Assembly: GCF_002895925.1 (NCBI RefSeq)
Contig: NZ_NWUO01000007.1
Location: forward strand, 137,252-169,251
Reading direction: 5' to 3'
Source: Mixta theicola
GTDB taxonomy: Bacteria; Pseudomonadota; Gammaproteobacteria; Enterobacterales; Enterobacteriaceae
Length of the DNA stretch: 32,000 nt
Position 1 is the stretch's first letter; the number at the start of each line of letters is the position of its first letter. Position numbers and translations under genes: made by a program. Shown here piece by piece: positions 8,771 to 27,657 of the stretch. The notes beneath the pieces were generated by a model. The model saw nothing but the letters and a program-made list of their open reading frames with translations, was not told the DNA's origin and did no database searches.

Positions 8771-9606
8771 ATGGCTATCGAAATTAATGTCCCGGACATC
8801 GGCGCCGATGAAGTTGAAGTGACCGAAATCCTGGTAAAGGTTGGCGATAAAGTTGAGGCGGAACAGTCACTGATCACCGTTGAAGGCGACAAAGCCTCAA
8901 TGGAAGTGCCTTCGCCGCAGGCTGGCGTGGTCAAAGAGATTAAGGTTAACACCGGCGACAAAGTTGAAACCGGCTCGCTGATTATGATCTTTGAGGCAGA
9001 GGCTGCCGCGAATGCGCAGCCAGCACCGGCCGCTGAGAAAAAGGCTGACGCACAGCCAGCGCCAGCCGCCGCTGCAGAAAGCAAAGAGGTTAATGTCCCG
9101 GACATCGGCAGCGACGAAGTCGAAGTGACCGAAATCCTGGTTAAAGTTGGCGACAAAGTCGAAGCGGAACAGTCGCTGATCACCGTTGAAGGCGATAAAG
9201 CCTCAATGGAAGTACCGGCGCCGTTCGCAGGTACGGTTAAAGAGATCAAAATCAACACCGGCGATAAAGTCAGCACCGGCTCGCTGATTATGGTATTCGA
9301 AACCGCAGCTTCCGGCAGCGCGGCGGCGGCCAAACCGCAGGCGAAAGAGGAAGCGGCCACTGCGCCTGCGGCCTCCGGCGGTTCGGCCACCAAAGAGGTG
9401 AACGTTCCGGACATCGGTGGCGATGAAGTTGAAGTGACCGAAATTCTGGTGAAGGCGGGTGATAAAGTCACCGCCGAGCAGTCGCTGATCACCGTTGAAG
9501 GCGATAAAGCCTCAATGGAAGTACCGGCGCCGTTCGCGGGTACGGTTAAAGAGATCAAAATCAACACCGGCGATAAAGTCAGCACCGGCTCGCTGATTAT
9601 GCTGTT
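8771..9606 (+). repeat. three tandem lipoyl-domain coding repeats (about 306-309 bp period) inside aceF
   Basis: Units start near 8771, 9083 and 9392. Units 2 and 3 share a 123-bp block (9170-9292 vs 9479-9601) with a single mismatch (9229 A vs 9538 G). Confidence 0.9.
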
Positions 9607-10669
9607 TGAAGTGGAAGGCGCACCAGCTCCGGCTCCGGCAGCGCAGAAAGAAACGTCGGCGCCGGCAGCTAAAGCTGAGCAGGCGGCTCCGGCTGCATCC
9701 GCTCCGGCAAAAGCATCCGCTAAAGATGAATTTGCTGAGAACGACGCCTATGTACACGCTACGCCGGTTATCCGTCGTCTGGCGCGTGAATTCGGCGTCA
9801 ACCTGGCGAAAGTCAAAGGCACCGGCCGTAAAGGACGTATTCTGAAAGAAGACGTACAGGCCTACGTGAAAGATGCGGTGAAACGCGCTGAATCCGCGCC
9901 AGCCGCCGCTACCGGCGGTGGTTTGCCGGGCATGCTGCCGTGGCCGAAGGTTGACTTCAGCAAGTTTGGTGAAGTGGAAGTCGTTGAGCTGGGACGTATC
10001 CAGAAAATTTCTGGCGCTAACCTGAGCCGTAACTGGGTCATGATCCCGCACGTTACGCACTTCGATAAAACCGATATTACCGAGCTGGAAGCGTTCCGTA
10101 AGCAGCAGAACGTCGAAGCCGAGAAGCGTAAGCTGGATGTGAAGATCACCCCGGTTGTCTTCATCATGAAAGCGGCCGCTGCCGCGCTGGAGCAGATGCC
10201 GCGCTTCAACAGTTCGCTGTCTGAAGATGGCCAGAAGCTGACGCTGAAAAAATACATCAACATCGGCGTGGCGGTTGATACGCCGAATGGTCTGGTGGTT
10301 CCGGTGTTCAAGGATGTTAACAAGAAAGGCATCATTGAGCTCTCCCGCGAGCTGATGGCTATCTCCAAAAAAGCGCGTGACGGTAAGCTGACCGCTGGCG
10401 AAATGCAGGGTGGCTGTTTCACTATCTCCAGCATCGGCGGCCTGGGCACTACCCACTTCGCGCCGATTGTGAACGCGCCGGAAGTCGCTATTTTGGGCGT
10501 TTCCAAGTCCGCAATGGAGCCGGTGTGGAATGGTAAAGAGTTTATGCCGCGTCTGATGCTGCCGATCTCTCTGTCCTTCGACCATCGTGTAATCGATGGT
10601 GCTGATGGTGCGCGTTTCATCACCATCATCAACAACACCTTAAGCGATATTCGCCGCCTGGTGATGTAA
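8771..10669 (+). CDS. aceF: dihydrolipoyllysine acetyltransferase E2 with three lipoyl domains
   Basis: 632-aa ORF. It has three tandem lipoyl domains ([10 protein letters not shown] x3) separated by Ala/Pro-rich linkers, an E3-binding domain and a catalytic domain with DHRVIDGA. Confidence 0.97.
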
Positions 10670-12564: not shown

Positions 12565-14672
12565 GTGTTCCCCGCGCCAGCGGGGATAAACCGACCATAA
12601 TCGCCGAGCGCAGCAGTTCTTTTATGTGTTCCCCGCGCCAGCGGGGATAAACCGCGTTTTATAACCGCCCAACAGAACAGCGCGATGTGTTCCCCGCGCC
12701 AGCGGGGATAAACCGCCGCTTCTAATACGGTAGACGCCACGCCCGTCGTGTTCCCCGCGCCAGCGGGGATAAACCTTCGCCCAGCTCGGCCGCAATGGGT
12801 AAAACGCGGTGTTCCCCGCGCCAGCGGGGATAAACCGGCTCATTTCACAGGTTAGGGTTCGGTGTGTTTGTGTTCCCCGCGCCAGCGGGGATAAACCGCA
12901 ACCGAGGCGACCGTGACAGCCACCATGATCGTGTTCCCCGCGCCAGCGGGGATAAACCGCTGCCGCGCGAGTTCTGTCATGTTGCCCCGAGGTGTTCCCC
13001 GCGCCAGCGGGGATAAACCGGCCGTCCGTGAGTCGATGGTGAATACCTACGAGTGTTCCCCGCGCCAGCGGGGATAAACCGGCTATCTGTATACCGTGGA
13101 TGATGAGTTTGCCGTGTTCCCCGCGCCAGCGGGGATAAACCGGTTAATAACAATGTCTGAAAAATTGATAGGTGGTGTTCCCCGCGCCAGCGGGGATAAA
13201 CCGCGTTCGACACCGACACTGACAACGGCGCGCTACTGGCCGTGTTCCCCGCGCCAGCGGGGATAAACCGCAGATGCGTTCTACAACAGGGCTCATCAGG
13301 AGGTGTTCCCCGCGCCAGCGGGGATAAACCGCCTGGCGTCGGGGAATGAAGCACCGATGGGAGGTGTTCCCCGCGCCAGCGGGGATAAACCGCAACGGGT
13401 GAGTAATTCTGCTCAATATAGTGGGTGTTCCCCGCGCCAGCGGGGATAAACCGCGACCAATTCTGTCAGAGACATCGAGAATTATGTGTTCCCCGCGCCA
13501 GCGGGGATAAACCGGAAATTCTGTCGTTCACCACCTCCCGAAACCCGTGTTCCCCGCGCCAGCGGGGATAAACCGCGTCCACCAGCGAGGTTTGGTGGCC
13601 GGAGAATGTGTTCCCCGCGCCAGCGGGGATAAACCGGTTCCATTTTCAACCTTGTTTAATTTATCCTTGTGTTCCCCGCGCCAGCGGGGATAAACCGCGC
13701 GCTGCTCGTGGGCGAACCACCAAAAAGAGTGTTCCCCGCGCCAGCGGGGATAAACCGAATACGACGAGCTATGCCCGGCTTCTTCTTGAGTGTTCCCCGC
13801 GCCAGCGGGGATAAACCGGTGCCCGACAGCGAAATTAACTGGGAGCAGTTGTGTTCCCCGCGCCAGCGGGGATAAACCGGTATATTGCGACCAGTCCATG
13901 TCAGTCATTACGTGTTCCCCGCGCCAGCGGGGATAAACCGCGGCCAGTAAATAAAAAAGAACCAAAACCGCTGTGTTCCCCGCGCCAGCGGGGATAAACC
14001 GATGAATTTGAACATATTTACCTCGGCGTGCCGGTGTTCCCCGCGCCAGCGGGGATAAACCGGCGGCATTTGATATGGCACGGTTAATAATTTCGTGTTC
14101 CCCGCGCCAGCGGGGATAAACCGTTTTCCAGAGCGTTCCTGCGCGCGGGCGATGAGTGTTCCCCGCGCCAGCGGGGATAAACCGCAGGAAATGATCGCCT
14201 GCCTTAAGGGTCAAATGTGTTCCCCGCGCCAGCGGGGATAAACCGGTTTTCAATACGTGTACGCCATTCTTTGAAAAGTGTTCCCCGCGCCAGCGGGGAT
14301 AAACCGGAGGCGCTGCTTATGTTTGATGAGCTGAGCAAGTGTTCCCCGCGCCAGCGGGGATAAACCGGAATCCGTTATCATCAAAATGCGCCTTTATTTG
14401 TGTTCCCCGCGCCAGCGGGGATAAACCGAGCTTTTAATGTCTAACACAGAATTTCCTGCTGTGTTCCCCGCGCCAGCGGGGATAAACCGACCCGAAAACG
14501 CCGAAAGGTAAGGCGTACACCGTGTTCCCCGCGCCAGCGGGGATAAACCGTGAACCTGACTTATCCGACAGCCTCCGGCAATGTGTTCCCCGCACCAGCG
14601 GGGATAAACCGCTACCGGCGAGAAAGGTCGCCCCGGACGTGGCGTGTTCCCTGCGCCAGCGGGGATAAACCG
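12565..14672 (+). CRISPR. CRISPR1, type I-E array, 35 repeats / 34 spacers
   Basis: 29-nt repeat GTGTTCCCCGCGCCAGCGGGGATAAACCG at 12565, 12626, ... 14644 with period 61. Spacers are 32 nt except 38 nt (13204-13241) and 31 nt (13698-13728). Repeat 4 ends in T (12776). The last two repeats carry one substitution each (14583: CGCACC; 14644: CCCTGCG). Plus orientation is inferred from the leader at the 5' side, degenerate repeats at the 3' side, and the I-E 5' handle ATAAACCG. Confidence 0.98.
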
Positions 14673-14872
14673 CCTGTCCCGCTCAATACCATACCATCAA
14701 CAGCAAATGCCGCTTGTGCCCACCGAACGCTTCTGTGAAGCCTAATGGCGCATCTGGCGTATGGTGCAGATCTTTATCTTACGGCACTGCTTTTGAGCTG
14801 GCTGGGTTAAATTTTTTATTCAATGCCGGGGCGACACCTGAGGAATTTCCTGCGGGCCAGACTGGTTTTTAA
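14673..14872 (+). pseudogene. decayed copy of the toxin-ORF linker fused directly to the last CRISPR1 repeat
   Basis: 14673-14738 reads PVPLNTIPSTANAACAHRTLL*, compare PVPLSTINSKAAGG in the 15085 ORF; the DNA is homologous to 15561-15600 and 16422-16460 with a 5-bp ATACC duplication. A second piece in another frame (14816-14872, LFNAGATPEEFPAGQTGF*) resembles IYNGNPEGFRQT of the same ORF. Confidence 0.5.
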
Positions 14873-14958
14873 TGCGCGCTCGCTGACAGTGACAGGCCCT
14901 GACGGGAAAGCGTGAAACAGATAAATATTGTCGAAAATAACGACAGGATTCACTATAG

Positions 14959-14998
14959 CTAATTCACTAATTCACTAATTCACTAATTCACTAATTAA
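14959..14998. repeat. tandem octamer (CTAATTCA) x4 perfect plus 1 imperfect
   Basis: CTAATTCA repeats at 14959, 14967, 14975 and 14983, then CTAATTAA at 14991, with a partial ATTCACTA at 14948. It lies about 90 nt upstream of the 15085 ATG in very AT-rich DNA. Confidence 0.9.
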
Positions 14999-15084
14999 CT
15001 GATATAAATGGTTTTTTATGGTTGATGTCTAAATAAAGTTGTGCAATCGTGCAGGCGACAGTTTCCATCATAAGGATATGATGT

Positions 15085-16008
15085 ATGAGCTTCAGCCTGC
15101 CCGGAACCGATCTTTATTATCTGCCGCGCGACGATTTGGCCCCGGAGAAATATGAGGAAATTGTCTCTCCTCATTCCGCCTGGTCACGAATCGACAGCCA
15201 ATATGTTTTTGATGACCGTCCGCTTTTGTGTTTTCAGCTTATCAATATGTATGAACGCGCCTTTAACGGCTATACAAACCAGCCGCCGCCGCACGGGCCA
15301 CGGGAGCGGGAAAAGCTAAAAAGTATGATTTACTGCGGCGAGGCGGTGATGCTCGGCGGATTTTCTGCCTTAAAAGGCCGGCTGTTTTATATCAACGACG
15401 ATGGCGAGCTGATTTGCCGCGACCCGCTGGTGTTTAAGTTTAACGGGGCGCAGGATATTATCCGTGAATATAAAAGATCGGTTGCCCGCCGGGACTACAG
15501 CAGCAGGGGCGGAAAGCCACGTCCCACCGTTTTACCTGCCCGGCAGGCCGGGATAAAGCAGCCCGTTCCGCTCAGTACTATCAACAGTAAAGCCGCCGGT
15601 GGAATTTATAACGGCAACCCTGAAGGATTCAGACAGACTGCAGAGCAGCTGGGAGGCGATGCGCCTGCCGGTTATGACCAGATGATATCTGACCAGGCCA
15701 AAGGGTTGCTTATTGCGGGCGCCTCAATAGCGGCTGGCCTGACACTGGGCAGAATGCCTGTCAGTAAAACCAGGGTAAAAGGAGCTGTGGCGAAAGCGGA
15801 GGCTGTGGCTGGTAATTCGCTGAAAAATATCGGGAATAGCACCGCCAAAAATTTGTTTAAAAATAGAGCGGAAACACAAGCTAGTATCGATCAGAAATTA
15901 GCTAACTACCTGTTGAATAAAGATAACCCCGTTGGAAGCAGCAAGGCGGAATGGTTCGATAGCGCTCTTGGTTTTAACACAACAAATTCAGGTGAGCTTA
16001 CAAAATAA
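15085..16008 (+). CDS. polymorphic-toxin-like protein with an unrecognised N-terminal region, Gly/Ala-rich hydrophobic segment and a DUF6883-like C-terminal domain cut by a TAA
   Basis: 307-codon ORF with the SD AAGGA 8 nt upstream of the ATG. I do not recognise residues 1-170. The linker PVPLSTINSKAAGGIYNGNPEGF recurs twice elsewhere in the island. There is a hydrophobic GLLIAGASIAAGLTLG segment. From residue 269, DQKLANYLLNKDNPVGSSKAEWFDSALGF matches my memory of the DUF6883 signature (KLxxYLLxxxHPxGxxKAxFFxxLGF). Confidence 0.6.
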   Translation: MSFSLPGTDLYYLPRDDLAPEKYEEIVSPHSAWSRIDSQYVFDDRPLLCFQLINMYERAFNGYTNQPPPHGPREREKLKSMIYCGEAVMLGGFSALKGRLFYINDDGELICRDPLVFKFNGAQDIIREYKRSVARRDYSSRGGKPRPTVLPARQAGIKQPVPLSTINSKAAGGIYNGNPEGFRQTAEQLGGDAPAGYDQMISDQAKGLLIAGASIAAGLTLGRMPVSKTRVKGAVAKAEAVAGNSLKNIGNSTAKNLFKNRAETQASIDQKLANYLLNKDNPVGSSKAEWFDSALGFNTTNSGELTK

Positions 16009-16184
16009 ATAATCTTTGATGCCACTAAAGCTATCAAAACAGCAGAAACGCAGTTTGGTACTAAATATGTCAAATGATGCCAATAACTGGTCTGAATGGT
16101 AGAACTATTAACATTAAATTTGGTTGGATTAGGAATAATGATGGATTTGTCAGGCTCGTAACCGCTATTCCGGCCCAAAAATGA
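16009..16184 (+). pseudogene. remainder of the DUF6883-like domain, separated by a nonsense codon and a frameshift
   Basis: Reading on past TAA 16006-16008 gives IIFDATKAIKTAETQFGTKYVK then TGA (16075-16077). The -1 frame (2 nt downstream-shifted) entered at 16074 gives MMPITGLNGRTINIKFGWIRNNDGFVRLVTAIPAQK* (stop 16182-16184). Together these give the second half of the recalled DUF6883 pattern (G.KYV...GPNGR...WI...LVTA.P). Confidence 0.6.
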
Positions 16185-16205
16185 AAATTTATCGGAATTT
16201 ACTTT

Positions 16206-16403
16206 ATGTTAAAAGAATATGATGTAGTAAAAGCAAAAAAAGAGCTGACTAAAAAAGTATTAAAAAATTGTACAGGAGCTATAGTTTTGATATATCAAGA
16301 ACCTACTTTAGGGTATGAAGTAGATTTCGTGGATAATCAAGGAGATACGTTAGAAGTGCTAACAGTTTACCCTGAAGATGATATTGAACCAGTAAAATTT
16401 TGA
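16206..16403 (+). CDS. DUF4926-like small protein (candidate immunity/antitoxin partner)
   Basis: Intact 65-aa ORF MLKEYDVVKAKKELTKKVLKNCTGAIVLIYQEPTLGYEVDFVDNQGDTLEVLTVYPEDDIEPV. The pattern (D.V.L......L..G..G.IV.......YEVEF.D..G.T..V.T......I.P) fits my recollection of DUF4926, which commonly follows DUF6883 genes. It starts 21 nt after the reconstructed DUF6883 stop and is very AT-rich. Confidence 0.55.
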   Translation: MLKEYDVVKAKKELTKKVLKNCTGAIVLIYQEPTLGYEVDFVDNQGDTLEVLTVYPEDDIEPVKF

Positions 16404-16409
16404 TTCAGC

Positions 16410-16530
16410 CAGGATAAGGAAGCTTGTCCCGCTCAGTACCATCAATAGCAAAACCGCCGGGAGGCTTCTGGCCGCCGGTAGAATTTATAACGGCAGCTCT
16501 GGATTGTTGGATCCTAAAATGCTGAAATAA
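16410..16530 (+). pseudogene. orphan (promoterless, start-less) copy of the toxin linker with a different short C-terminus
   Basis: 16420-16530 reads KLVPLSTINSKTAGRLLAAGRIYNGSSGLLDPKMLK*. The DNA is homologous to 15549-15620 with an insertion of about 18 nt. There is no ATG in frame after the upstream stop at 16393-16395. Confidence 0.6.
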
Positions 16531-16531
16531 A

Positions 16532-16771
16532 GATATAGATAATGATTTTGAAATAAAATTTTTTATTGATTCTAAGTATGAAGAAATCACGGTGGAAATT
16601 TGTTATGGGGAAATACTCTACCAATGAAACAAAGATAAAGGCCCTGATAATATTGAAATAGAATTTTTTTCAGACGTCAAAATCTTAGCTGAACAAAATG
16701 CCATGAAATTTATCCTGAGTAGGTTCTTACAGATTTTAGCGGAAACAATACAAGAACTGGAAATATCTTAG
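16532..16771 (+). pseudogene. degraded small ORF, possibly an orphan immunity gene
   Basis: The frame reads DIDNDFEIKFFIDSKYEEITVEICYGEILYQ*NKDKGPDNIEIEFFSDVKILAEQNAMKFILSRFLQILAETIQELEIS*. It has an in-frame TGA at 16625-16627 and no clear start. Its AT-rich acidic composition and its position after an orphan toxin tip are typical of immunity genes. The family is not recognised. Confidence 0.35.
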
Positions 16772-16991
16772 CCAATACGAATCCCTGCCAACTGGCCGGG
16801 ATGTTAATGTATAACCAGCCTGCCTGAACTCAAAGTATGACGAATAATAAACAAGGAATGTTAGATGCTGCAGGGCGTAAGAAATACATTCTGGCAGACC
16901 ATGAGGAACACCCGAACCTATAAAGGGTGGCCAGGCCGAGAAAAATGCGGCAGCGGAAGGCTTCATTCGTGATGTTTTGCACAATCCTGAT

Positions 16992-17080
16992 GTGTTCCCT
17001 GCGTCAGGGAGGATCAACCGAACGTCAGCTGTTGAATGTTGATAGGGCGGTGTGTTCTCCGCCCAGGTGACGATAAACTT
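16992..17080 (+). CRISPR. two heavily decayed CRISPR repeats with a 31-nt spacer (relic trailer)
   Basis: 16992-17020 GTGTTCCCTGCGTCAGGGAGGATCAACCG has 5 of 29 mismatches to the repeat. 17052-17080 GTGTTCTCCGCCCAGGTGACGATAAACTT has 9 of 29 ungapped mismatches. The orientation is the same as CRISPR1. Confidence 0.8.
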
Positions 17081-17145
17081 TTATATCAAAATGAGAGTTT
17101 ATCGCAGTGGATTCAACTGGAATAAAATAATAGCCTGCCATTATA

Positions 17146-17174
17146 TTTATTGCTGCGCCTTCGGGGATTAATTA
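17146..17174 (+). repeat. possible third decayed repeat overlapping the cas3 stop codon
   Basis: TTTATTGCTGCGCCTTCGGGGATTAATTA matches 17 of 29 positions overall, but the core GCGCC..CGGGGAT matches 12 of 14. Spacing from the previous relic is 94 nt, not 61. Confidence 0.35.
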
Positions 17175-19892
17175 TTTATTCACTACATTACTACCACATA
17201 GTCCGTAGCGCTGGCTGTAATATGACGATTCCCCTGTTGATGACACCAAAATGACGTATGCTGCGGGACGATGCTGCTTTTTGCGAAACTGCTCCAGCGT
17301 TTCATCGTCAGGGCAAGCAAAATTTCCTGATTGTTTCTTCCACCACGACAGGCGTACAGACAGGCGACTTTTTTCCCAAACAAAATCACCTTCGCTAACT
17401 AGGGGGTGTAACACTCTATTTTCATCCTGCCAGGCAAGATATAGATCAACGCTTTCCTCGCCCAGGCGTGTTGAAAACTCTCGCTCTTTATCCCATAGAA
17501 AATCACTGGCTTCTCTGTCGTAGCCTTTATCTCGTCGCAATAAGTTTTGAGCCGCAACAGCGCGTTGGCTTAATATTTTACCGAACGCTATATCAGAAAT
17601 AGTTAATAAGTCGGAAGGCGCTGTTATTTCTTGTCCATAAACGCCATCGATCAACATTCGGGCGCTTTCGGGCATGCGTATTTCCCCAGCTTGTTTAAGC
17701 AGCGCCTGCGTACGCCATAAACAGGCATGATCGGGATAAACGGCTCCGGTGCCGCGCAGTTCCTGTCCCAGCCAGTCCCGTTCCGCCTGCGGCTGCCATT
17801 CAGGCGCGAGGATATGCAGCACTGGCGGGTGCCGCTCATCAGGCAAAGTGGTTTTACATTTTCCCTGTACATTGCGGATATGACGCTGCAAACGGCCTGC
17901 TCGTTGAATAAGTAAATCGATGGGCGCTAAATCAGAGATCATCCAGTCAAAATCGAGATCCAGACTCTGCTCAACAACCTGCGTTGCAATTAGCACTTTC
18001 CCGCGACGTTCCGAAACCGGCGCATCCTTGCCGAACCAGCTTAACGTTTTTTCTTCAATCGCCATTCGATCCGCAAAGGCAAAACGGCTATGGAACAACA
18101 ATAGGTCCTGCTCGGGTATTTTCGCTTCATTTAGGAGCTGCCGAAAAACATTCAGCGCATCGTCAACGGTATTTCGAATCCAGCAAACGCATCCGCCGAA
18201 TTCCACTACCTGATAAATAATATCCAGCGCATCTTTGCACGTATGGATCCAGTTCACAGCTACCGTACGCTTTACTTCCGAACGCGTTGTTAGCGGTTGT
18301 TCTGAAAGGCCAGCAGAAGAAAGATGACTTAACCATGGGTAACTGGCTTCTTCACTAATATTTGTGGTGGGGTATCCGGCTCCTTCATTAAATGCGCAGA
18401 TTAATTTTTCTCGCAGTGCGGCGGGTAATGTCGCGCTTAAAATGATGGCGCTGCCGCCCTGGGCGGCATGAAAGCGGAGCAGCCCCTCCAGCAGCTTCAC
18501 CATATAACCATCGTAGGCATGCACCTCATCCAGCAACAAAATTTTGTCGAGCATTCCCAGCAGACGCAAGGATTGATGGCGAAATGGCATCACCGCCATC
18601 AGTAGCTGATCCAGTGTGCCAACGCCAACTTCCGCCAGTAAGGCTTTTTTACGCGAATCGGCAAACCAGGCATGGCATTCCGCCTGCGCACTGCTTTCAT
18701 TGCGCGCATAATCTTCAGCCTGATTTTTTTCACCGGGTTGCCAGATGGACTGCTGAAAAGAGGCGGCCATTTCGCGCCCGCCATGCGCCAGTATCAGCGA
18801 GGGTCTGGCATCATCAACAAACAGCGCGCGATAAGCTTTTGCCAGTCGCGAGTACATCGCGTTAGCGGTCGCCATCGTCGGCAGACCGACATATAACCCT
18901 TTCCCTTTACCGGCAGATAATAAACGATGGGTCAGAATCATCGCTGCCTCAGTTTTTCCAGCACCTGTGACATCTTCCATAATAATCAGCTGTGGGCCAG
19001 ACGCTGAAATATCCAGCGTAGCCGCTCGTTGCTGGAGCGGCGTTAGCGTTTTGATAAACGGGAACAGTGCCTGATGGCTGGTATAATGACTATATGCTGA
19101 TAAAGGCGGGATATTTTCAATCGCTCGCCGGGCTTTTTCGCAGGCGAGCGGCCAATAATCTTGCAGGGTAACCGGAGCGGCAATAAGCGGAAACTGAGTT
19201 TCGTCAGATCCTATCCAGTCCGCCAACGTCATTATGCCGGCAAAAAACCAGCTTTGCTGCCTTAAAATTTTTTTTGCTGTTTTTTTCTGCCATTCCTGCG
19301 GCAGTGTGAAAGGAAACAGCTGGCTCAACGTCTCAAGATAATTTTTGGCGGCAACGATATCGTCGCCGTCGAACGCCAGCGGGCTGCTATTTTTTAACGT
19401 ATCTGGAGGAATGCCATGATGTCCGGTGCTAATGGATAACCAGATAGTTAACGCGCTTTCAAATTTTTCGCGATCTTCTCGGGCAACATTAGAAATTATT
19501 TGATTGCTATCACTACACCAGTCTTTAAATAATCTATCCCATAAATAAAAGCCCAGCGAATCATGGCGTTCAGGCGCGAAAATATGGCTTACAGGCGGAG
19601 CTAATGGCGAATCAGGAAACACAGCATATTTTTGAAATCCCCTGGCGAACTTACCTATATCATGGCAGGCGAAGAGCCAGGCAATCCAGTTAGCGGTATC
19701 TTTCTCAGCAATGCCACATTTATGAAGCATGTTATTAATATTAAAGATATTATGTTTAACTAAATAATATCCGCATGCGGCGACATCAAGGCAGTGATAG
19801 GGCAGCAGATGATAAGGATCATTTTTATTGTTGCTGGATTTGTTAGTTTTTCCCCAGTAGAGAAGAAAGTCAGGAGTTGTTAACACCGTCAT
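17172..19892 (-). CDS. cas3: Cas3 HD nuclease / SF2 helicase, type I-E
   Basis: 906-aa ORF. N-terminal HD domain (HCLDVAA..., CHDIGKF, HHG), Walker A DVTGAGKTEAA, DEAH-like LLDEVHAYD, and helicase motif VI QRAGRLQRH. Its size is similar to E. coli Cas3. Confidence 0.95.
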   Translation of the reverse strand: MTVLTTPDFLLYWGKTNKSSNNKNDPYHLLPYHCLDVAACGYYLVKHNIFNINNMLHKCGIAEKDTANWIAWLFACHDIGKFARGFQKYAVFPDSPLAPPVSHIFAPERHDSLGFYLWDRLFKDWCSDSNQIISNVAREDREKFESALTIWLSISTGHHGIPPDTLKNSSPLAFDGDDIVAAKNYLETLSQLFPFTLPQEWQKKTAKKILRQQSWFFAGIMTLADWIGSDETQFPLIAAPVTLQDYWPLACEKARRAIENIPPLSAYSHYTSHQALFPFIKTLTPLQQRAATLDISASGPQLIIMEDVTGAGKTEAAMILTHRLLSAGKGKGLYVGLPTMATANAMYSRLAKAYRALFVDDARPSLILAHGGREMAASFQQSIWQPGEKNQAEDYARNESSAQAECHAWFADSRKKALLAEVGVGTLDQLLMAVMPFRHQSLRLLGMLDKILLLDEVHAYDGYMVKLLEGLLRFHAAQGGSAIILSATLPAALREKLICAFNEGAGYPTTNISEEASYPWLSHLSSAGLSEQPLTTRSEVKRTVAVNWIHTCKDALDIIYQVVEFGGCVCWIRNTVDDALNVFRQLLNEAKIPEQDLLLFHSRFAFADRMAIEEKTLSWFGKDAPVSERRGKVLIATQVVEQSLDLDFDWMISDLAPIDLLIQRAGRLQRHIRNVQGKCKTTLPDERHPPVLHILAPEWQPQAERDWLGQELRGTGAVYPDHACLWRTQALLKQAGEIRMPESARMLIDGVYGQEITAPSDLLTISDIAFGKILSQRAVAAQNLLRRDKGYDREASDFLWDKEREFSTRLGEESVDLYLAWQDENRVLHPLVSEGDFVWEKSRLSVRLSWWKKQSGNFACPDDETLEQFRKKQHRPAAYVILVSSTGESSYYSQRYGLCGSNVVNK

Positions 19893-20004
19893 GTTTTTAT
19901 CCTACACCTTATACGGAATAATGCTGACGATTTTAATATGCTACCAGAATGAACTGAACACAATTTTATACAACGCTTATATGAATGTAATTAAGATTAA
20001 AGTC

Positions 20005-20084
20005 TATTTTCCCCCGCTGACGGGGAAGCGCTCTGTTAAAGATTGTATAACTGGTGTTTTATCCCTGTAAGCATCAAGGAAGTT
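20005..20084 (-). other. two inverted CRISPR-repeat-like units flanking a 24-nt spacer-like segment (candidate psi-crRNA / relic mini-array) upstream of cas3
   Basis: Read on the minus strand. Unit B (20084->20055) is AACTTCCTTGATGCTTACAGGGATAAAACA, containing GGGATAAA, an exact 8-mer of the repeat 3' end. Then comes CCAGTTATACAATCTTTAACAGAG (20054->20031). Unit A (20030->20005) is CGCTTCCCCGTCAGCGGGGGAAAATA, containing TTCCCCG and CAGCGGGG, exact 7- and 8-mers of the repeat, with the stem-loop CCCCG-TCAG-CGGGG. Confidence 0.5.
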
Positions 20085-20195
20085 TCTTTCGTGCTAACCC
20101 ATGAGGAAATGCTGTTGTTGGCATTCCTAGTCTCTGTAATGAAGCGCTAACGTCCGGCTGGCCCCTCTTTGGGCCAGTCTTACAGGAGTAACAAG

Positions 20196-21752
20196 ATGGA
20201 TTTGACTCAGGAGAAATGGCTTCCTGTCGTTCTGCATGATGGAAAGAAAACCCGAATTTCTCTGTCGGAGCTGTTAAACGACAATATTATTGATGTCGCC
20301 TGGCCACGGGCTGATTTTCAGGGGGCGTCATGGCAAATGTTGATCGGCGTGCTGCAATGTGCCGTTGCGCCAGAAGAAGAGGATGACTGGAAAGATACCT
20401 GGGATGACGGTATTGATGCTGAAGAATGGGCGCTGGGGTTGCAACGTATCTCTTGCGCCTTACGCTTTGGCGCTGAAAAGCCTTCCTTTCTGCAAAGCTT
20501 TGAGCCGTTAGAAAGTGAAGCCAGCCCCATTTCCGGGCTATTGATTGATGCGCCTGGCGGTAACACGCTTAAGTTCAACAAAGATCATTTTGTGAAGCGA
20601 GGCCGCACAGAACGTATCTGTCCCCACTGTGCGGTAATGGCGCTGTTTGCCATGCAAACCAACTCGCCGGCTGGCGGGGCAGGCTATCGGGTTAGTATGC
20701 GCGGTGGCGGGCCGCTAACCACCCTGGCTGTCCCACTGGAAGAAGAAAAATTCCCGCTGTGGAAAAAGCTTTGGCTGAACGTATTGCCGCAGGATGAGGC
20801 TTTGACGCCTGTACAGTTCCCCTCGGTTTTCCCCTGGCTTGCGCCGACCAAAACCAGCGAAAAAGCGGGGAACGTGGTGACGCCGGAAAACGCGCATCCG
20901 CTTCAGGCTTACTGGGGCATGCCGCGACGTATCGAACTGGATTTTAACCATACCGTAAGCGGCATCTGCGATTTATGTGGCGAACCCCATGAGCAACTGC
21001 TGCTGCAAATCCGCGTAAAAAATTATGGTGTTCAGTATGAAGGTTGGCTACACCCACTTTCGCCGTATCGCCAGGCGCTGAAAGATCTCTCCGCGCCCTG
21101 GCTGGCGTTAAAAGGCCAACCGGGCGGGTTAAGTTATAAAGACTGGCTGGGCCTGAGCCTGGAGCGTGCCGATAAATTTAATAAAAACCAGCCTGCGAAA
21201 GTGGTGCGCGCCGCCAGCAGAAGAATTAATGGCGGAATGTGGTGCTTCGCCTGGGATATGGACAATGCCAAAGCGCGCTGTTGGTATCAGCATCGCATTC
21301 CACTTATTCCCGCTGATTCAGATCTCTTGCAGATCGCTGTTTATCACGTGCTGCAGCTGGCGACAGAAACATTGCCTCTGCTAAGAAATGCGCTGAAAAG
21401 CGCTAAATTTGAGCATCCTAAAGAGGCGAAGTTTGATTCCAGTATGGTGGATATCGCTTTCTGGCAGGAAACTGAACCCGCTTTCCGCAAACTGCTTGAT
21501 ATTTTAATAGCGGACCCGCCGCGTAAGAATGCGCCTGCGCGCCGGGCGCTGCGCCAGTGGGATAGTGAGCTGCATACCTACGCGCTGCGCGTTTTCGATC
21601 GTGATGCGCTAACCGACCCCGATAGCCCAACGGATATTCTGCTGCGACAGATTGAAGCCCGACGCACGCTGGATGGCAGCTATCGTAAGCTCAAAGCGCG
21701 CAAAGAAGTCCTGGCGCTGGCAGAAGAAGAAAAGGAGACCAAACGTGCTTAA
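20196..21752 (+). CDS. casA: Cse1/Cas8e (CasA), Cascade large subunit
   Basis: The ORF track starts at TTG 20169, but ATG 20196 has the SD AGGAG 7 nt upstream and gives MDLTQEKWLPVV..., typical of Cse1 N-termini. It is first in the cse1-cse2-cas7-cas5-cas6e order. Confidence 0.9.
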   Translation: MDLTQEKWLPVVLHDGKKTRISLSELLNDNIIDVAWPRADFQGASWQMLIGVLQCAVAPEEEDDWKDTWDDGIDAEEWALGLQRISCALRFGAEKPSFLQSFEPLESEASPISGLLIDAPGGNTLKFNKDHFVKRGRTERICPHCAVMALFAMQTNSPAGGAGYRVSMRGGGPLTTLAVPLEEEKFPLWKKLWLNVLPQDEALTPVQFPSVFPWLAPTKTSEKAGNVVTPENAHPLQAYWGMPRRIELDFNHTVSGICDLCGEPHEQLLLQIRVKNYGVQYEGWLHPLSPYRQALKDLSAPWLALKGQPGGLSYKDWLGLSLERADKFNKNQPAKVVRAASRRINGGMWCFAWDMDNAKARCWYQHRIPLIPADSDLLQIAVYHVLQLATETLPLLRNALKSAKFEHPKEAKFDSSMVDIAFWQETEPAFRKLLDILIADPPRKNAPARRALRQWDSELHTYALRVFDRDALTDPDSPTDILLRQIEARRTLDGSYRKLKARKEVLALAEEEKETKRA

Positions 21753-26164: not shown

Positions 26165-27657
26165 GTGTTCCCCGCGCCAGCGGGGATAAACCGGCGATAA
26201 GACCCACTGGATTCTGTTTCTGAAGGTGTTCCCCGCGCCAGCGGGGATAAACCGGGCGGGTATAGCTCATTCAATAAAATTCAGCGGTGTTCCCCGCGCC
26301 AGCGGGGATAAACCGGTTCGTATTTCCTGTTCTCTGGCACTGCAAGAGTGTTCCCCGCGCCAGCGGGGATAAACCGCGATCCCCACCATGCCAGATGTAG
26401 GCATCGACGTGTTCCCCGCGCCAGCGGGGATAAACCGCACATCCTTAAGATCAAGAAATGAGCGACATTGTGTTCCCCGCGCCAGCGGGGATAAACCGCC
26501 AACCACTCATCCGGGCAAAACTGCATTTAAGTGTTCCCCGCGCCAGCGGGGATAAACCGGTCCGTTGAGTTAGCGTTACGGGCAGTCTCACGTGTTCCCC
26601 GCGCCAGCGGGGATAAACCGCATTCTCATATGCCCTGTACGCGGGATTCTGAGTGTTCCCCGCGCCAGCGGGGATAAACCGCGACCAGTACACGTCAGCA
26701 GAGATGCCCAGCAGTGTTCCCCGCGCCAGCGGGGATAAACCGCACTGAATTTGCCTCCCATGTGAAGGCCACCTGTGTTCCCCGCGCCAGCGGGGATAAA
26801 CCGAACATAGTCACAATCGGCATACAAAAGCGCGTGTGTTCCCCGCGCCAGCGGGGATAAACCGCTATGCGTGAGCATTGAAGATAAGAGAAAATAGTGT
26901 TCCCCGCGCCAGCGGGGATAAACCGTTGTTTCGTTGCGAGGTCAGCACCATAGTGGTGTGTTCCCCGCGCCAGCGGGGATAAACCGGATAATCTGAGGTT
27001 TAACCCCAAGGTTATCTAGTGTTCCCCGCGCCAGCGGGGATAAACCGGCATGGTTCCATTGGTTCTTGCTCTTCTTGTTGTGTTCCCCGCGCCAGCGGGG
27101 ATAAACCGTGATAACTCATATTTAACTCCATTTATTTAATGTGTTCCCCGCGCCAGCGGGGATAAACCGCCGCTTTTATCGTTGTTCCTGATCCCATAAA
27201 AGTGTTCCCCGCGCCAGCGGGGATAAACCGGTTCGTTGGGGGTGTAACTCATGAGGTGCTCCGTGTTCCCCGCGCCAGCGGGGATAAACCGGCTCATTAG
27301 GGTCCACGCATGGCCTGACCATTGTGTTCCCCGCGCCAGCGGGGATAAACCGAACATCCGTCTAACGCTATTCCCCGTCTTTCGGTGTTCCCCGCGCCAG
27401 CGGGGATAAACCGCAATTGGGTCTGGAGTACCTGAGTCGTTGTGGGTGTTCCCCGCGCCAGCGGGGATAAACCGTCACTGTAGTTATAATACTCTATTAA
27501 ATAAATGTGTTCCCCGCGCCAGCGGGGATAAACCGGCTCACATAATAACGATAACAACACACACGCAGTGTTCCCCGCGCCAGCGGGGATAAACCGATGT
27601 TTCGGTTTGCCCACAGCTCGTTCCAGTGGTGTTCCCCGCGCCAGCGGGGATAAACCG
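26165..27657 (+). CRISPR. CRISPR2, type I-E array, 25 repeats / 24 spacers
   Basis: Same 29-nt repeat at 26165, 26226, ... 27629, all copies identical. Spacers are 32 nt except a 31-nt (26682-26712) and an adjacent 33-nt (26742-26774) spacer. Confidence 0.98.

Follow-up and report, generated by a model that had tools for sequence, protein, structure and literature searches.

[quoted passage not shown]

Introduction

What is the pair of CRISPR-repeat-like units that lies outside the arrays, between the divergent cas3 and cse1 genes of Mixta theicola? The initial annotation of this locus put forward three answers: a CreR-type mini-array regulating the cas genes, a leader of the cas3 transcript processed by Cas6e, or just a relic. 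Here, we weigh these answers by comparing the locus with other type I-E loci.

Degenerate mini-arrays are known from type I-E systems. In Salmonella enterica ATCC 51960, an element of this type, named creR by Liu et al. (2023, bioRxiv 10.1101/2023.03.10.532045), represses PcasA 8.6-fold via the Escherichia coli Cascade. The spacer-like segment of this creR, PsiS, has 15 consecutive nucleotides in common with a site that is flanked by AAG and lies about 140 bp upstream of casA; crRNA over-expression, like AcrIE8, relieves the repression (bioRxiv 10.1101/2023.03.10.532045). A survey of bacterial I-E loci found mini-arrays in about 19% of them; they cluster in the interval from cas3 to cas8e, their partial targets, flanked by AAG, are in the cas8e promoter, and autorepression was predicted (Shmakov et al. 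2023, bioRxiv 10.1101/2023.03.03.530964). The S. enterica creR and this I-E survey contradict the statement of the initial annotation that no such element is established for enterobacterial I-E systems.

Materials and Methods

Eighty I-E loci were fetched from species-representative genomes via Cse1 alignment; the closest Cse1 relatives and Salmonella were retrieved by exact-protein look-up. The repeat of each locus was aligned to the region upstream of its own cse1. When MAFFT was applied to whole intergenic regions, the leader block alone was aligned reliably. As large indels scrambled the rest of the alignment, we used anchored coordinates. A covariance model was trained on 13 mini-arrays from other species, the window being excluded, and 11 kb were searched with it on both strands.

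Targets of the M. theicola PsiS were searched over the whole 32-kb window on both strands (about 64,000 positions), and a second scan covered the intergenic region ±150 nt. Positions 6, 12, and 18 of PsiS were ignored, leaving 10 counted positions in the first 12.

Results

The type I-E system of the window, by which we mean the whole 32-kb stretch of M. theicola DNA analyzed here, is complete: cse1, on the + strand, is followed by cse2, cas7, cas5, cas6e, cas1, and cas2 (table 1). An exact-sequence look-up of the window Cse1 returned no record. The two arrays contain 60 copies of the repeat GTGTTCCCCGCGCCAGCGGGGATAAACCG. The spacing in array A is irregular at two places: the repeats starting at 13175 and 13242 (within 13175-13270) are 67 nt apart, with a 38-nt spacer, and those starting at 13669 and 13729 (within 13669-13757) are 60 nt apart, with a 31-nt spacer. 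Each of the two repeats at the distal end of array A (14583 and 14644) carries one substitution, and just after the array an 8-nt tandem repeat, CTAATTCA, is present in about five copies (14959-15000). Another repeat, with a period of 309 nt (8789-9601), lies within the ORF 8771-10669. On the basis of its position and of the repeat, it looks like the lipoyl domains of aceF in tandem, and would then be nothing unusual.

Table 1. Coordinates of the features of the M. theicola type I-E locus (positions in the window)
Feature	Position	Strand	Description
Array A	12565-14672	+	35 repeats
Array B	26165-27657	+	25 repeats
cas3	17172..19892	-	Divergent from cse1; Cas3_HD, Cas3-like_C_2, and DEAD matches
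cas3-proximal block	19893..19985	-	-10-like boxes TATAAAAT and ATTAAAAT; cas3 ribosome-binding site
PsiR2, degenerate second repeat	20002..20030 (20030->20002)	-	CGCTTCCCCGTCAGCGGGGGAAAATAGAC
PsiR2 Cas6e-type hairpin	20025-20021/20016-20012	-	CCCCG(20025-20021)-UCAG-CGGGG(20016-20012)
PsiS, spacer-like	20031..20054 (20054->20031)	-	24 nt; CCAGTTATACAATCTTTAACAGAG
PsiR1, degenerate first repeat	20055..20083 (20083->20055)	-	ACTTCCTTGATGCTTACAGGGATAAAACA
PsiR1 5'-handle-like sequence	20062-20055	-	AUAAAACA; canonical AUAAACCG
PsiR1 weak hairpin	20079-20075/20067-20063	-	CCUUG(20079-20075)/CAGGG(20067-20063), then handle-like AUAAAACA
cse1 leader block	20084..20195	+	Conserved, two hairpins; directly adjoins PsiR1
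Best partial match to PsiS	20171..20197 (site 20174-20197)	+	GGG + CCAGTcTTACAggAG; over the cse1 ribosome-binding site/start codon; weak candidate
cse1	20196..21752	+	Cse1 100% identical to an NCBI Mixta theicola protein

A second degenerate unit of two repeats is present about 90 nt past the stop codon of cas3 (16992-17080, + strand). It consists of GTGTTCCCTGCGTCAGGGAGGATCAACCG (24/29 positions as in the repeat), a 31-nt spacer, and GTGTTCTCCGCCCAGGTGACGATAAACTT (20/29), in the orientation and with the period of array A; within the 32-kb window, a PAM-flanked target of this spacer was not found. In Mixta tenebrionis (L001), the array adjoins the 3' end of cas3. From this arrangement and from the unit at 16992-17080, array A seems to have been separated from its old terminal repeats by an insertion of about 2.3 kb. 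The segment between the two (14673-16991) contains ORFs matching DUF6883 (15085-16008) and DUF4926 (16206-16403).

The divergent cas3/cse1 intergenic region is 303 nt long (19893-20195) and holds, on the - strand, two repeat-like units, PsiR1 and PsiR2, around the spacer-like segment PsiS. As all the array repeats are on the + strand, this unit, located within the cas locus and outside the arrays, is inverted with respect to the arrays and to cse1. The end of PsiR2 is about 110 nt upstream of the cas3 ATG (19892), the gap being 109 nt. The sequence thus reads as the initial annotation described it, with a repeat-like pair on the cas3 strand and a 24-nt spacer-like gap.

The two repeat-like units are conserved asymmetrically. 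In PsiR1, the 3' part of the repeat is kept, its handle end reading GGGATAAAACA where the array repeat reads GGGGATAAACCG, and six of the eight bases of the handle are retained. In PsiR2, it is the 5' hairpin part that is kept, TTCCCCG--TCAGCGGGG as compared with TTCCCCGCGCCAGCGGGG in the repeat, with 2 nt deleted. RNA folding gives the hairpin CCUUG-AUGCUUA-CAGGG immediately 5' of AUAAAACA and, in PsiR2, the hairpin CCCCG-UCAG-CGGGG, both in the correct register. The Cas6e-type stem-loop CCCCG-TCAG-CGGGG noted at the outset is therefore recovered by folding. The proposal that only the halves relevant to a crRNA persist also holds, in the sense that the handle end and the hairpin part are present in a degraded form. 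With both hairpins in register, an RNA made from this remnant may be processed by Cas6e and loaded into Cascade.

How easily could such a layout arise by chance? When the repeat was aligned to the 303-nt intergenic region, the best local score was reached by 20/2000 dinucleotide shuffles, and the similarity of PsiR2 is by itself modest. The handle-like 11-mer by itself was found in 6.6% of the shuffles, as against 2.4% for the hairpin motif by itself. Handle and hairpin combined, correctly ordered and separated by 14-36 nt, were found in 0/20,000 dinucleotide shuffles, so that the comparison with shuffled sequence suggested in the initial annotation speaks against chance. A scan of positions 16800-20400 against Rfam matched no family.

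Among the 85 I-E loci examined, 32 carry a mini-array. A rule-based scan detected the layout in 29 loci, and three more (L001, L005, and L011) were found by hand. Strong repeat-like matches occur almost only on the strand antisense to cse1, regardless of the direction of cas3, and all 32 mini-arrays are antisense to cse1. In this family, PsiR1 has the conserved end GGGAT(A/G)(A/G)ACC(G/A) and PsiR2 the conserved start TTCCCCGCG.CAGCGGGGAT. The PsiR1 hairpin shows compensatory substitutions: three pairs are changed on both sides, 98.7% of the cells are paired, and the observed level of covariation was reached in 0/500 shuffles.

An AAG-flanked match to PsiS is present in 28/29 of the rule-detected mini-arrays and in 3/3 of those found by hand, that is, in 31/32. 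These targets are on the same strand, 70-130 nt nearer to cse1, and agree with PsiS at 9 or more of the 10 positions counted within the first 12. The PsiS/target pairs vary between species and match within each species. Many of their mismatches fall at positions 6 and 12, a pattern that, on sequence grounds, we read as the signature of Cascade-type pairing. The mini-array family is a genuine guide/target system.

PsiS is 20-22 nt long in Enterobacterales and Gilliamella, with one case of 15 nt, and 32-33 nt long in Methylococcales and others. A guide of 20-21 nt is 12 nt under the normal spacer length, as would be expected for a Cascade short of two Cas7 subunits; we found no statement of this idea for I-E systems in Liu et al. 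2023 or Shmakov et al. 2023. Several mini-arrays depart from the usual organization. In Pluralibacter gergoviae (L010; 9486-9624, - strand), three units follow one another: PsiR1, 21 nt, a perfect repeat, 32 nt, and a third repeat. Pantoea sp. FN0305 (L081; 3539-3670, - strand) has three PsiR, and its two PsiS, with the common seed CTAGTACAGTT, both match one AAG site. In Citrobacter portucalensis (L014; 9682-9760, - strand), PsiR2 is only 44 nt from the cas3 ATG. Given this short gap, creR and cas3 may be co-transcribed, and separated by Cas6e, in some of the loci with a divergent cas3.

The covariance model, from which the window had been left out, matched it over the full length of the model at 20001-20087 on the - strand (27.8 bits, E = 3.3e-5). 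Besides this match in sequence and structure, the window unit has the position and orientation of the 32 mini-arrays, upstream of cse1 and antisense to it, which they keep whatever the direction of cas3. The loop of PsiR2 is the GTCA variant of many PsiR2 of the family, as opposed to GCCA in the array repeats, and PsiR1 resembles those of relatives (TCTTTCCTTACGTAAGTAGGGATAAACCA in L087, ATGTTCCTTGCATCGGCGGGGATGAACCG in L022). In a manual alignment, PsiS is most similar to that of L081 (CTAGTACAGTTCTTTAAATTA versus CCAGT[TAT]ACAATCTTTAACAGAG), the closest relative with a two-repeat mini-array, whose Cse1 is 81% identical to that of the window. The full-length match to the model, the GTCA loop, and the L081-like PsiS lead us to regard the window unit as homologous to the type I-E mini-arrays, by the evidence of sequence, predicted structure, position, and orientation.

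Within the family, the window copy is an outlier. It scores 27.8 bits, versus 54-62 for members outside the training set and 65-84 for training members, and 3 of the 24 family-invariant columns are broken, one in the handle (ACC -> AAC) and two in PsiR2. There are two indels in the unit. PsiS owes its 24 nt, a length found in no other locus examined, to an insertion of 3 nt behind the fifth base of the seed (CCAGT), and 2 nt are deleted in the PsiR2 stem.

The surroundings of PsiR1 are also altered. In the window, the leader is fused straight to PsiR1, GAAAGAAA being directly followed by CTTCCTT. The relatives read GAAAGAAA(C/T)CACCAT, then 70-270 nt with the AAG target and, by eye, the creR -10 box. 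It is the lack of this middle segment that makes the window intergenic region short. By eye, a -10-like box is found 5-15 nt upstream of PsiR1 in the relatives. A consensus scan revealed no promoter-like site upstream of PsiR1 in the window, where the cse1 leader is located, and the guide is probably without a promoter and drifting.

Mini-arrays are in different states within the same clade. They are intact in L081, L087, L001, and Salmonella; a single PsiR is fused to the leader in L083/L084 and in L003; and no mini-array is present in L085 and L002. In a metagenome scan for the window-type PsiR2 CTTCCCCGTCAGCGGGGGAAAA, the single match (L089) was an unrelated GC-rich contig, and no second copy was found. 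A comparison with 25 E. coli genomes gave 69% similarity in coding sequence only, the intergenic region being unaligned.

Both sides of the unit are flanked by conserved blocks. The cse1 leader, of about 110 nt, is common to Mixta, Pantoea, Rosenbergiella, and Salmonella (L081, L082, L003, and L083). It contains the hairpins ggaaatgc...gcattcc and ggctggccc...gggccag, the second of which ends at the ribosome-binding site. Attenuation or the binding of a protein are possible roles of this leader. On the other side, downstream of PsiR2, the cas3-proximal block is strongly conserved with L085, a locus without mini-array, and likely represents the cas3 promoter and 5' UTR. This conserved -10-like block between PsiR2 and the cas3 ATG suggests that cas3 probably has its own promoter downstream of the mini-array. 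The ribosome-binding-site region of cas3 (19893-19905, - strand), AGGATAAAAAC-ATG, resembles the 3' end of the repeat, GGGATAAACC. It is kept as a ribosome-binding site in relatives (L081 and L083) and is a source of spurious low-scoring repeat matches.

The target was searched at two scales, and both scans agree with the initial annotation that the window has no seed-matched target for PsiS. We found no AAG-flanked match in the intergenic region ±150 nt, and none above chance within the 32-kb window, whereas 31 of the 32 other loci have a seed match flanked by the AAG PAM in or near the cas promoter. AAG-flanked CCAGT seeds occur inside cas3 at 17509 and 18346, at chance frequency. When the window PsiS was compared with the intergenic regions of relatives, no AAG-flanked ancestral target was apparent, the only recurring match being the cse1 leader/ribosome-binding site.

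The best partial match in the window is the GGG-flanked site at the start of cse1 (table 1). It agrees with PsiS at 9/10 counted positions of the first 12, with a seed mismatch at position 7 and a non-AAG PAM, and is on the strand opposite to all family targets. Its sequence is a leader/ribosome-binding-site element kept in relatives whatever their PsiS. Such a match has a probability of roughly p = 0.02-0.03 for the intergenic region, and by our estimate about two matches as good are expected by chance per window. The literature searched contained no statement that GGG is a usable I-E PAM. Since the search covered 32 kb, a target elsewhere in the M. theicola genome is possible.

Discussion

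The literature and the present comparison suggest how an intact creR would act. It would be transcribed antisense to cse1, and Cas6e would cut its RNA at the two hairpins to give a short crRNA-like RNA that loads into Cascade. The loaded complex would then bind the AAG-flanked site next to the cse1 promoter, pairing through the first 12-18 nt of the guide only, and this partial pairing would repress the cascade operon without cleavage by Cas3. In M. theicola, the segment between the cse1 leader and PsiR1 would have been lost together with the target and the creR -10 box. Afterward, PsiR1-PsiS-PsiR2 would have gained the 3-nt insertion in the seed region, the 2-nt deletion in the PsiR2 stem, and the substitution in the handle.

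Because of the segment loss, the indels, and the handle substitution, an inactive relic is the most likely reading, and we favor, with fair confidence, a decaying creR that is probably no longer functional. At most, the unit would be a poorly expressed guide without a cognate target in the locus. Homology, lesions, and the lack of a target within the window are seen directly in the sequence comparison, and it is from these that we infer the loss of function. The cse1 promoter could overlap the remnant. Of the answers offered at the outset, the fallback of a mere relic is therefore the better supported, given the missing target and the several lesions. The proposal of a CreR-type, cas-regulating mini-array stands, by homology, for the kind of element; it probably does not stand for regulation in this locus, where no PAM-flanked target was found within the 32 kb and the unit is damaged.

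A working CreR, transcribed, processed, and guiding Cascade either to a target elsewhere in the genome or to the GGG-flanked site so as to damp cse1, is in our opinion rather unlikely. The two hairpins are still in register, the handle is largely intact, and the best match to the first 12 nt among about 64,000 positions is located in the 5' region of cse1. An L081-like PsiS would match this site less well, as it lacks both the change of T to C at position 2 and the insertion of 3 nt (manual alignment). E. coli Cascade is moreover reported to bind sites in vivo via very short seed matches. However, the PAM is GGG where 31/31 family targets have AAG, the seed is interrupted at position 7, and the strand is opposite to that of every family target. 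The matching sequence is a conserved element present where PsiS is unrelated, about two matches of this quality would by our estimate occur in the window by chance alone, the AAG-flanked CCAGT seeds of cas3 are no more frequent than chance, and the consensus scan showed no promoter-like box ahead of PsiR1.

Could the remnant have been taken over for the expression of cas3? It would then provide either a promoter, CTTACA-N18-TACAAT, with a -10 box created by the PsiS insertion, or a 5' leader with a hairpin cut by Cas6e. The unit is indeed co-oriented with cas3 and close upstream of it, a promoter-like site on the cas3 strand (20071->20042) agrees at 9/12 positions, and the short gap in C. portucalensis makes co-transcription plausible in some relatives. 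Nevertheless, the scanned region would contain 1.6 sites of this kind by chance alone, and a separate -10-like block downstream of PsiR2 is conserved with L085, which has no mini-array. In loci where cas3 and cse1 are co-oriented, the mini-array is antisense to cas3; its conserved partner is thus cse1 and not cas3. We consider such a takeover improbable. As the main explanation, the Cas6e-processed cas3 leader of the initial annotation was rejected, a conserved promoter-like block lying between PsiR2 and the cas3 ATG.

It would likewise be surprising if the remnant had been repurposed, with Cascade binding weakly to the GGG-flanked CCAGTcTTACA, through a non-canonical PAM and an imperfect seed, or with TATACAAT serving as a -10 box for cas3. 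The first case would represent a retargeted autoregulator; in the second, a relic would drive or modulate cas3 transcription.

A chance similarity, or an eroded fragment of an ordinary array unrelated to creR, is very improbable: the handle and the hairpin are each found in some shuffles, and the string GGATAAAA is present, with no connection to creR, at the cas3 ribosome-binding site too, but the combination of handle and hairpin was never obtained by shuffling, the family model matches significantly, placement and orientation are syntenic with the mini-array family, the GTCA loop is common to family PsiR2, and the inter-repeat spacing is short as in this family rather than the 32 nt of the arrays.

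The S. enterica creR is, like the window unit, a degenerate two-repeat mini-CRISPR upstream of casA/cse1 in which the handle end of PsiR1 and the hairpin end of PsiR2 are kept. The Salmonella locus L082 also shares with the window its arrays of GTGTTCCCCGCGCCAGCGGGGATAAACCG and a divergent cas3, and its Cse1 is 70% identical. In contrast to the S. enterica PsiS with its AAG-flanked 15-nt target, the PsiS of the window is 24 nt long without an AAG match, and PsiR2 and the handle carry lesions. The mini-arrays of Shmakov et al. 2023 similarly lie in a long cas3-cas8e intergenic region and have two repeat-like units, of which one is decayed and the other well preserved; the window copy differs by the absence of a predicted target and by an intergenic region of 303 nt.

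Other crRNA-like regulators are more distant. CreA of the CreTA module (Haloarcula hispanica, type I-B) is, like creR, an RNA from a degenerate mini-CRISPR that represses with Cascade through a partial seed match. It differs from the window unit in also repressing a toxin RNA, CreT, and in subtype and repeat. No such toxin partner is evident beside the window unit: there is no additional ORF or RNA family match, and the 109 nt up to cas3 are occupied by the cas3-proximal block. The tracr-L of the Streptococcus pyogenes cas9 operon is a non-canonical natural guide that acts, as creR does, on its own promoter via a short match; unlike creR, it belongs to class 2 and derives from the tracrRNA and not from a mini-array. 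Repeat-like hairpins are also known outside arrays, as solitary repeat units, phage RNA anti-CRISPRs (Racr), and crRNA-like RNAs of phages, and can bind components of Cascade or Cas6. All of these are encoded by mobile elements and directed against immunity, whereas the window unit is chromosomal, syntenic with creR, and made of two units.

The class, location, and mechanism of creR have already been published, including for Enterobacterales, and the M. theicola locus adds little new biology in this respect. It provides a new but degraded member of the creR mini-arrays. Its value is comparative, as it adds a guide without target to a series of intact mini-arrays (L081, L087, L001, and Salmonella), single repeats (L083 and L003), and loci with none (L085 and L002). 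This series suggests that the clade, which still has large and nearly perfect arrays, can dispense with autorepression by creR and readily loses it. If the unit is indeed a relic, M. theicola would be a natural creR-null strain, suited to asking which other factors keep cas expression in check.
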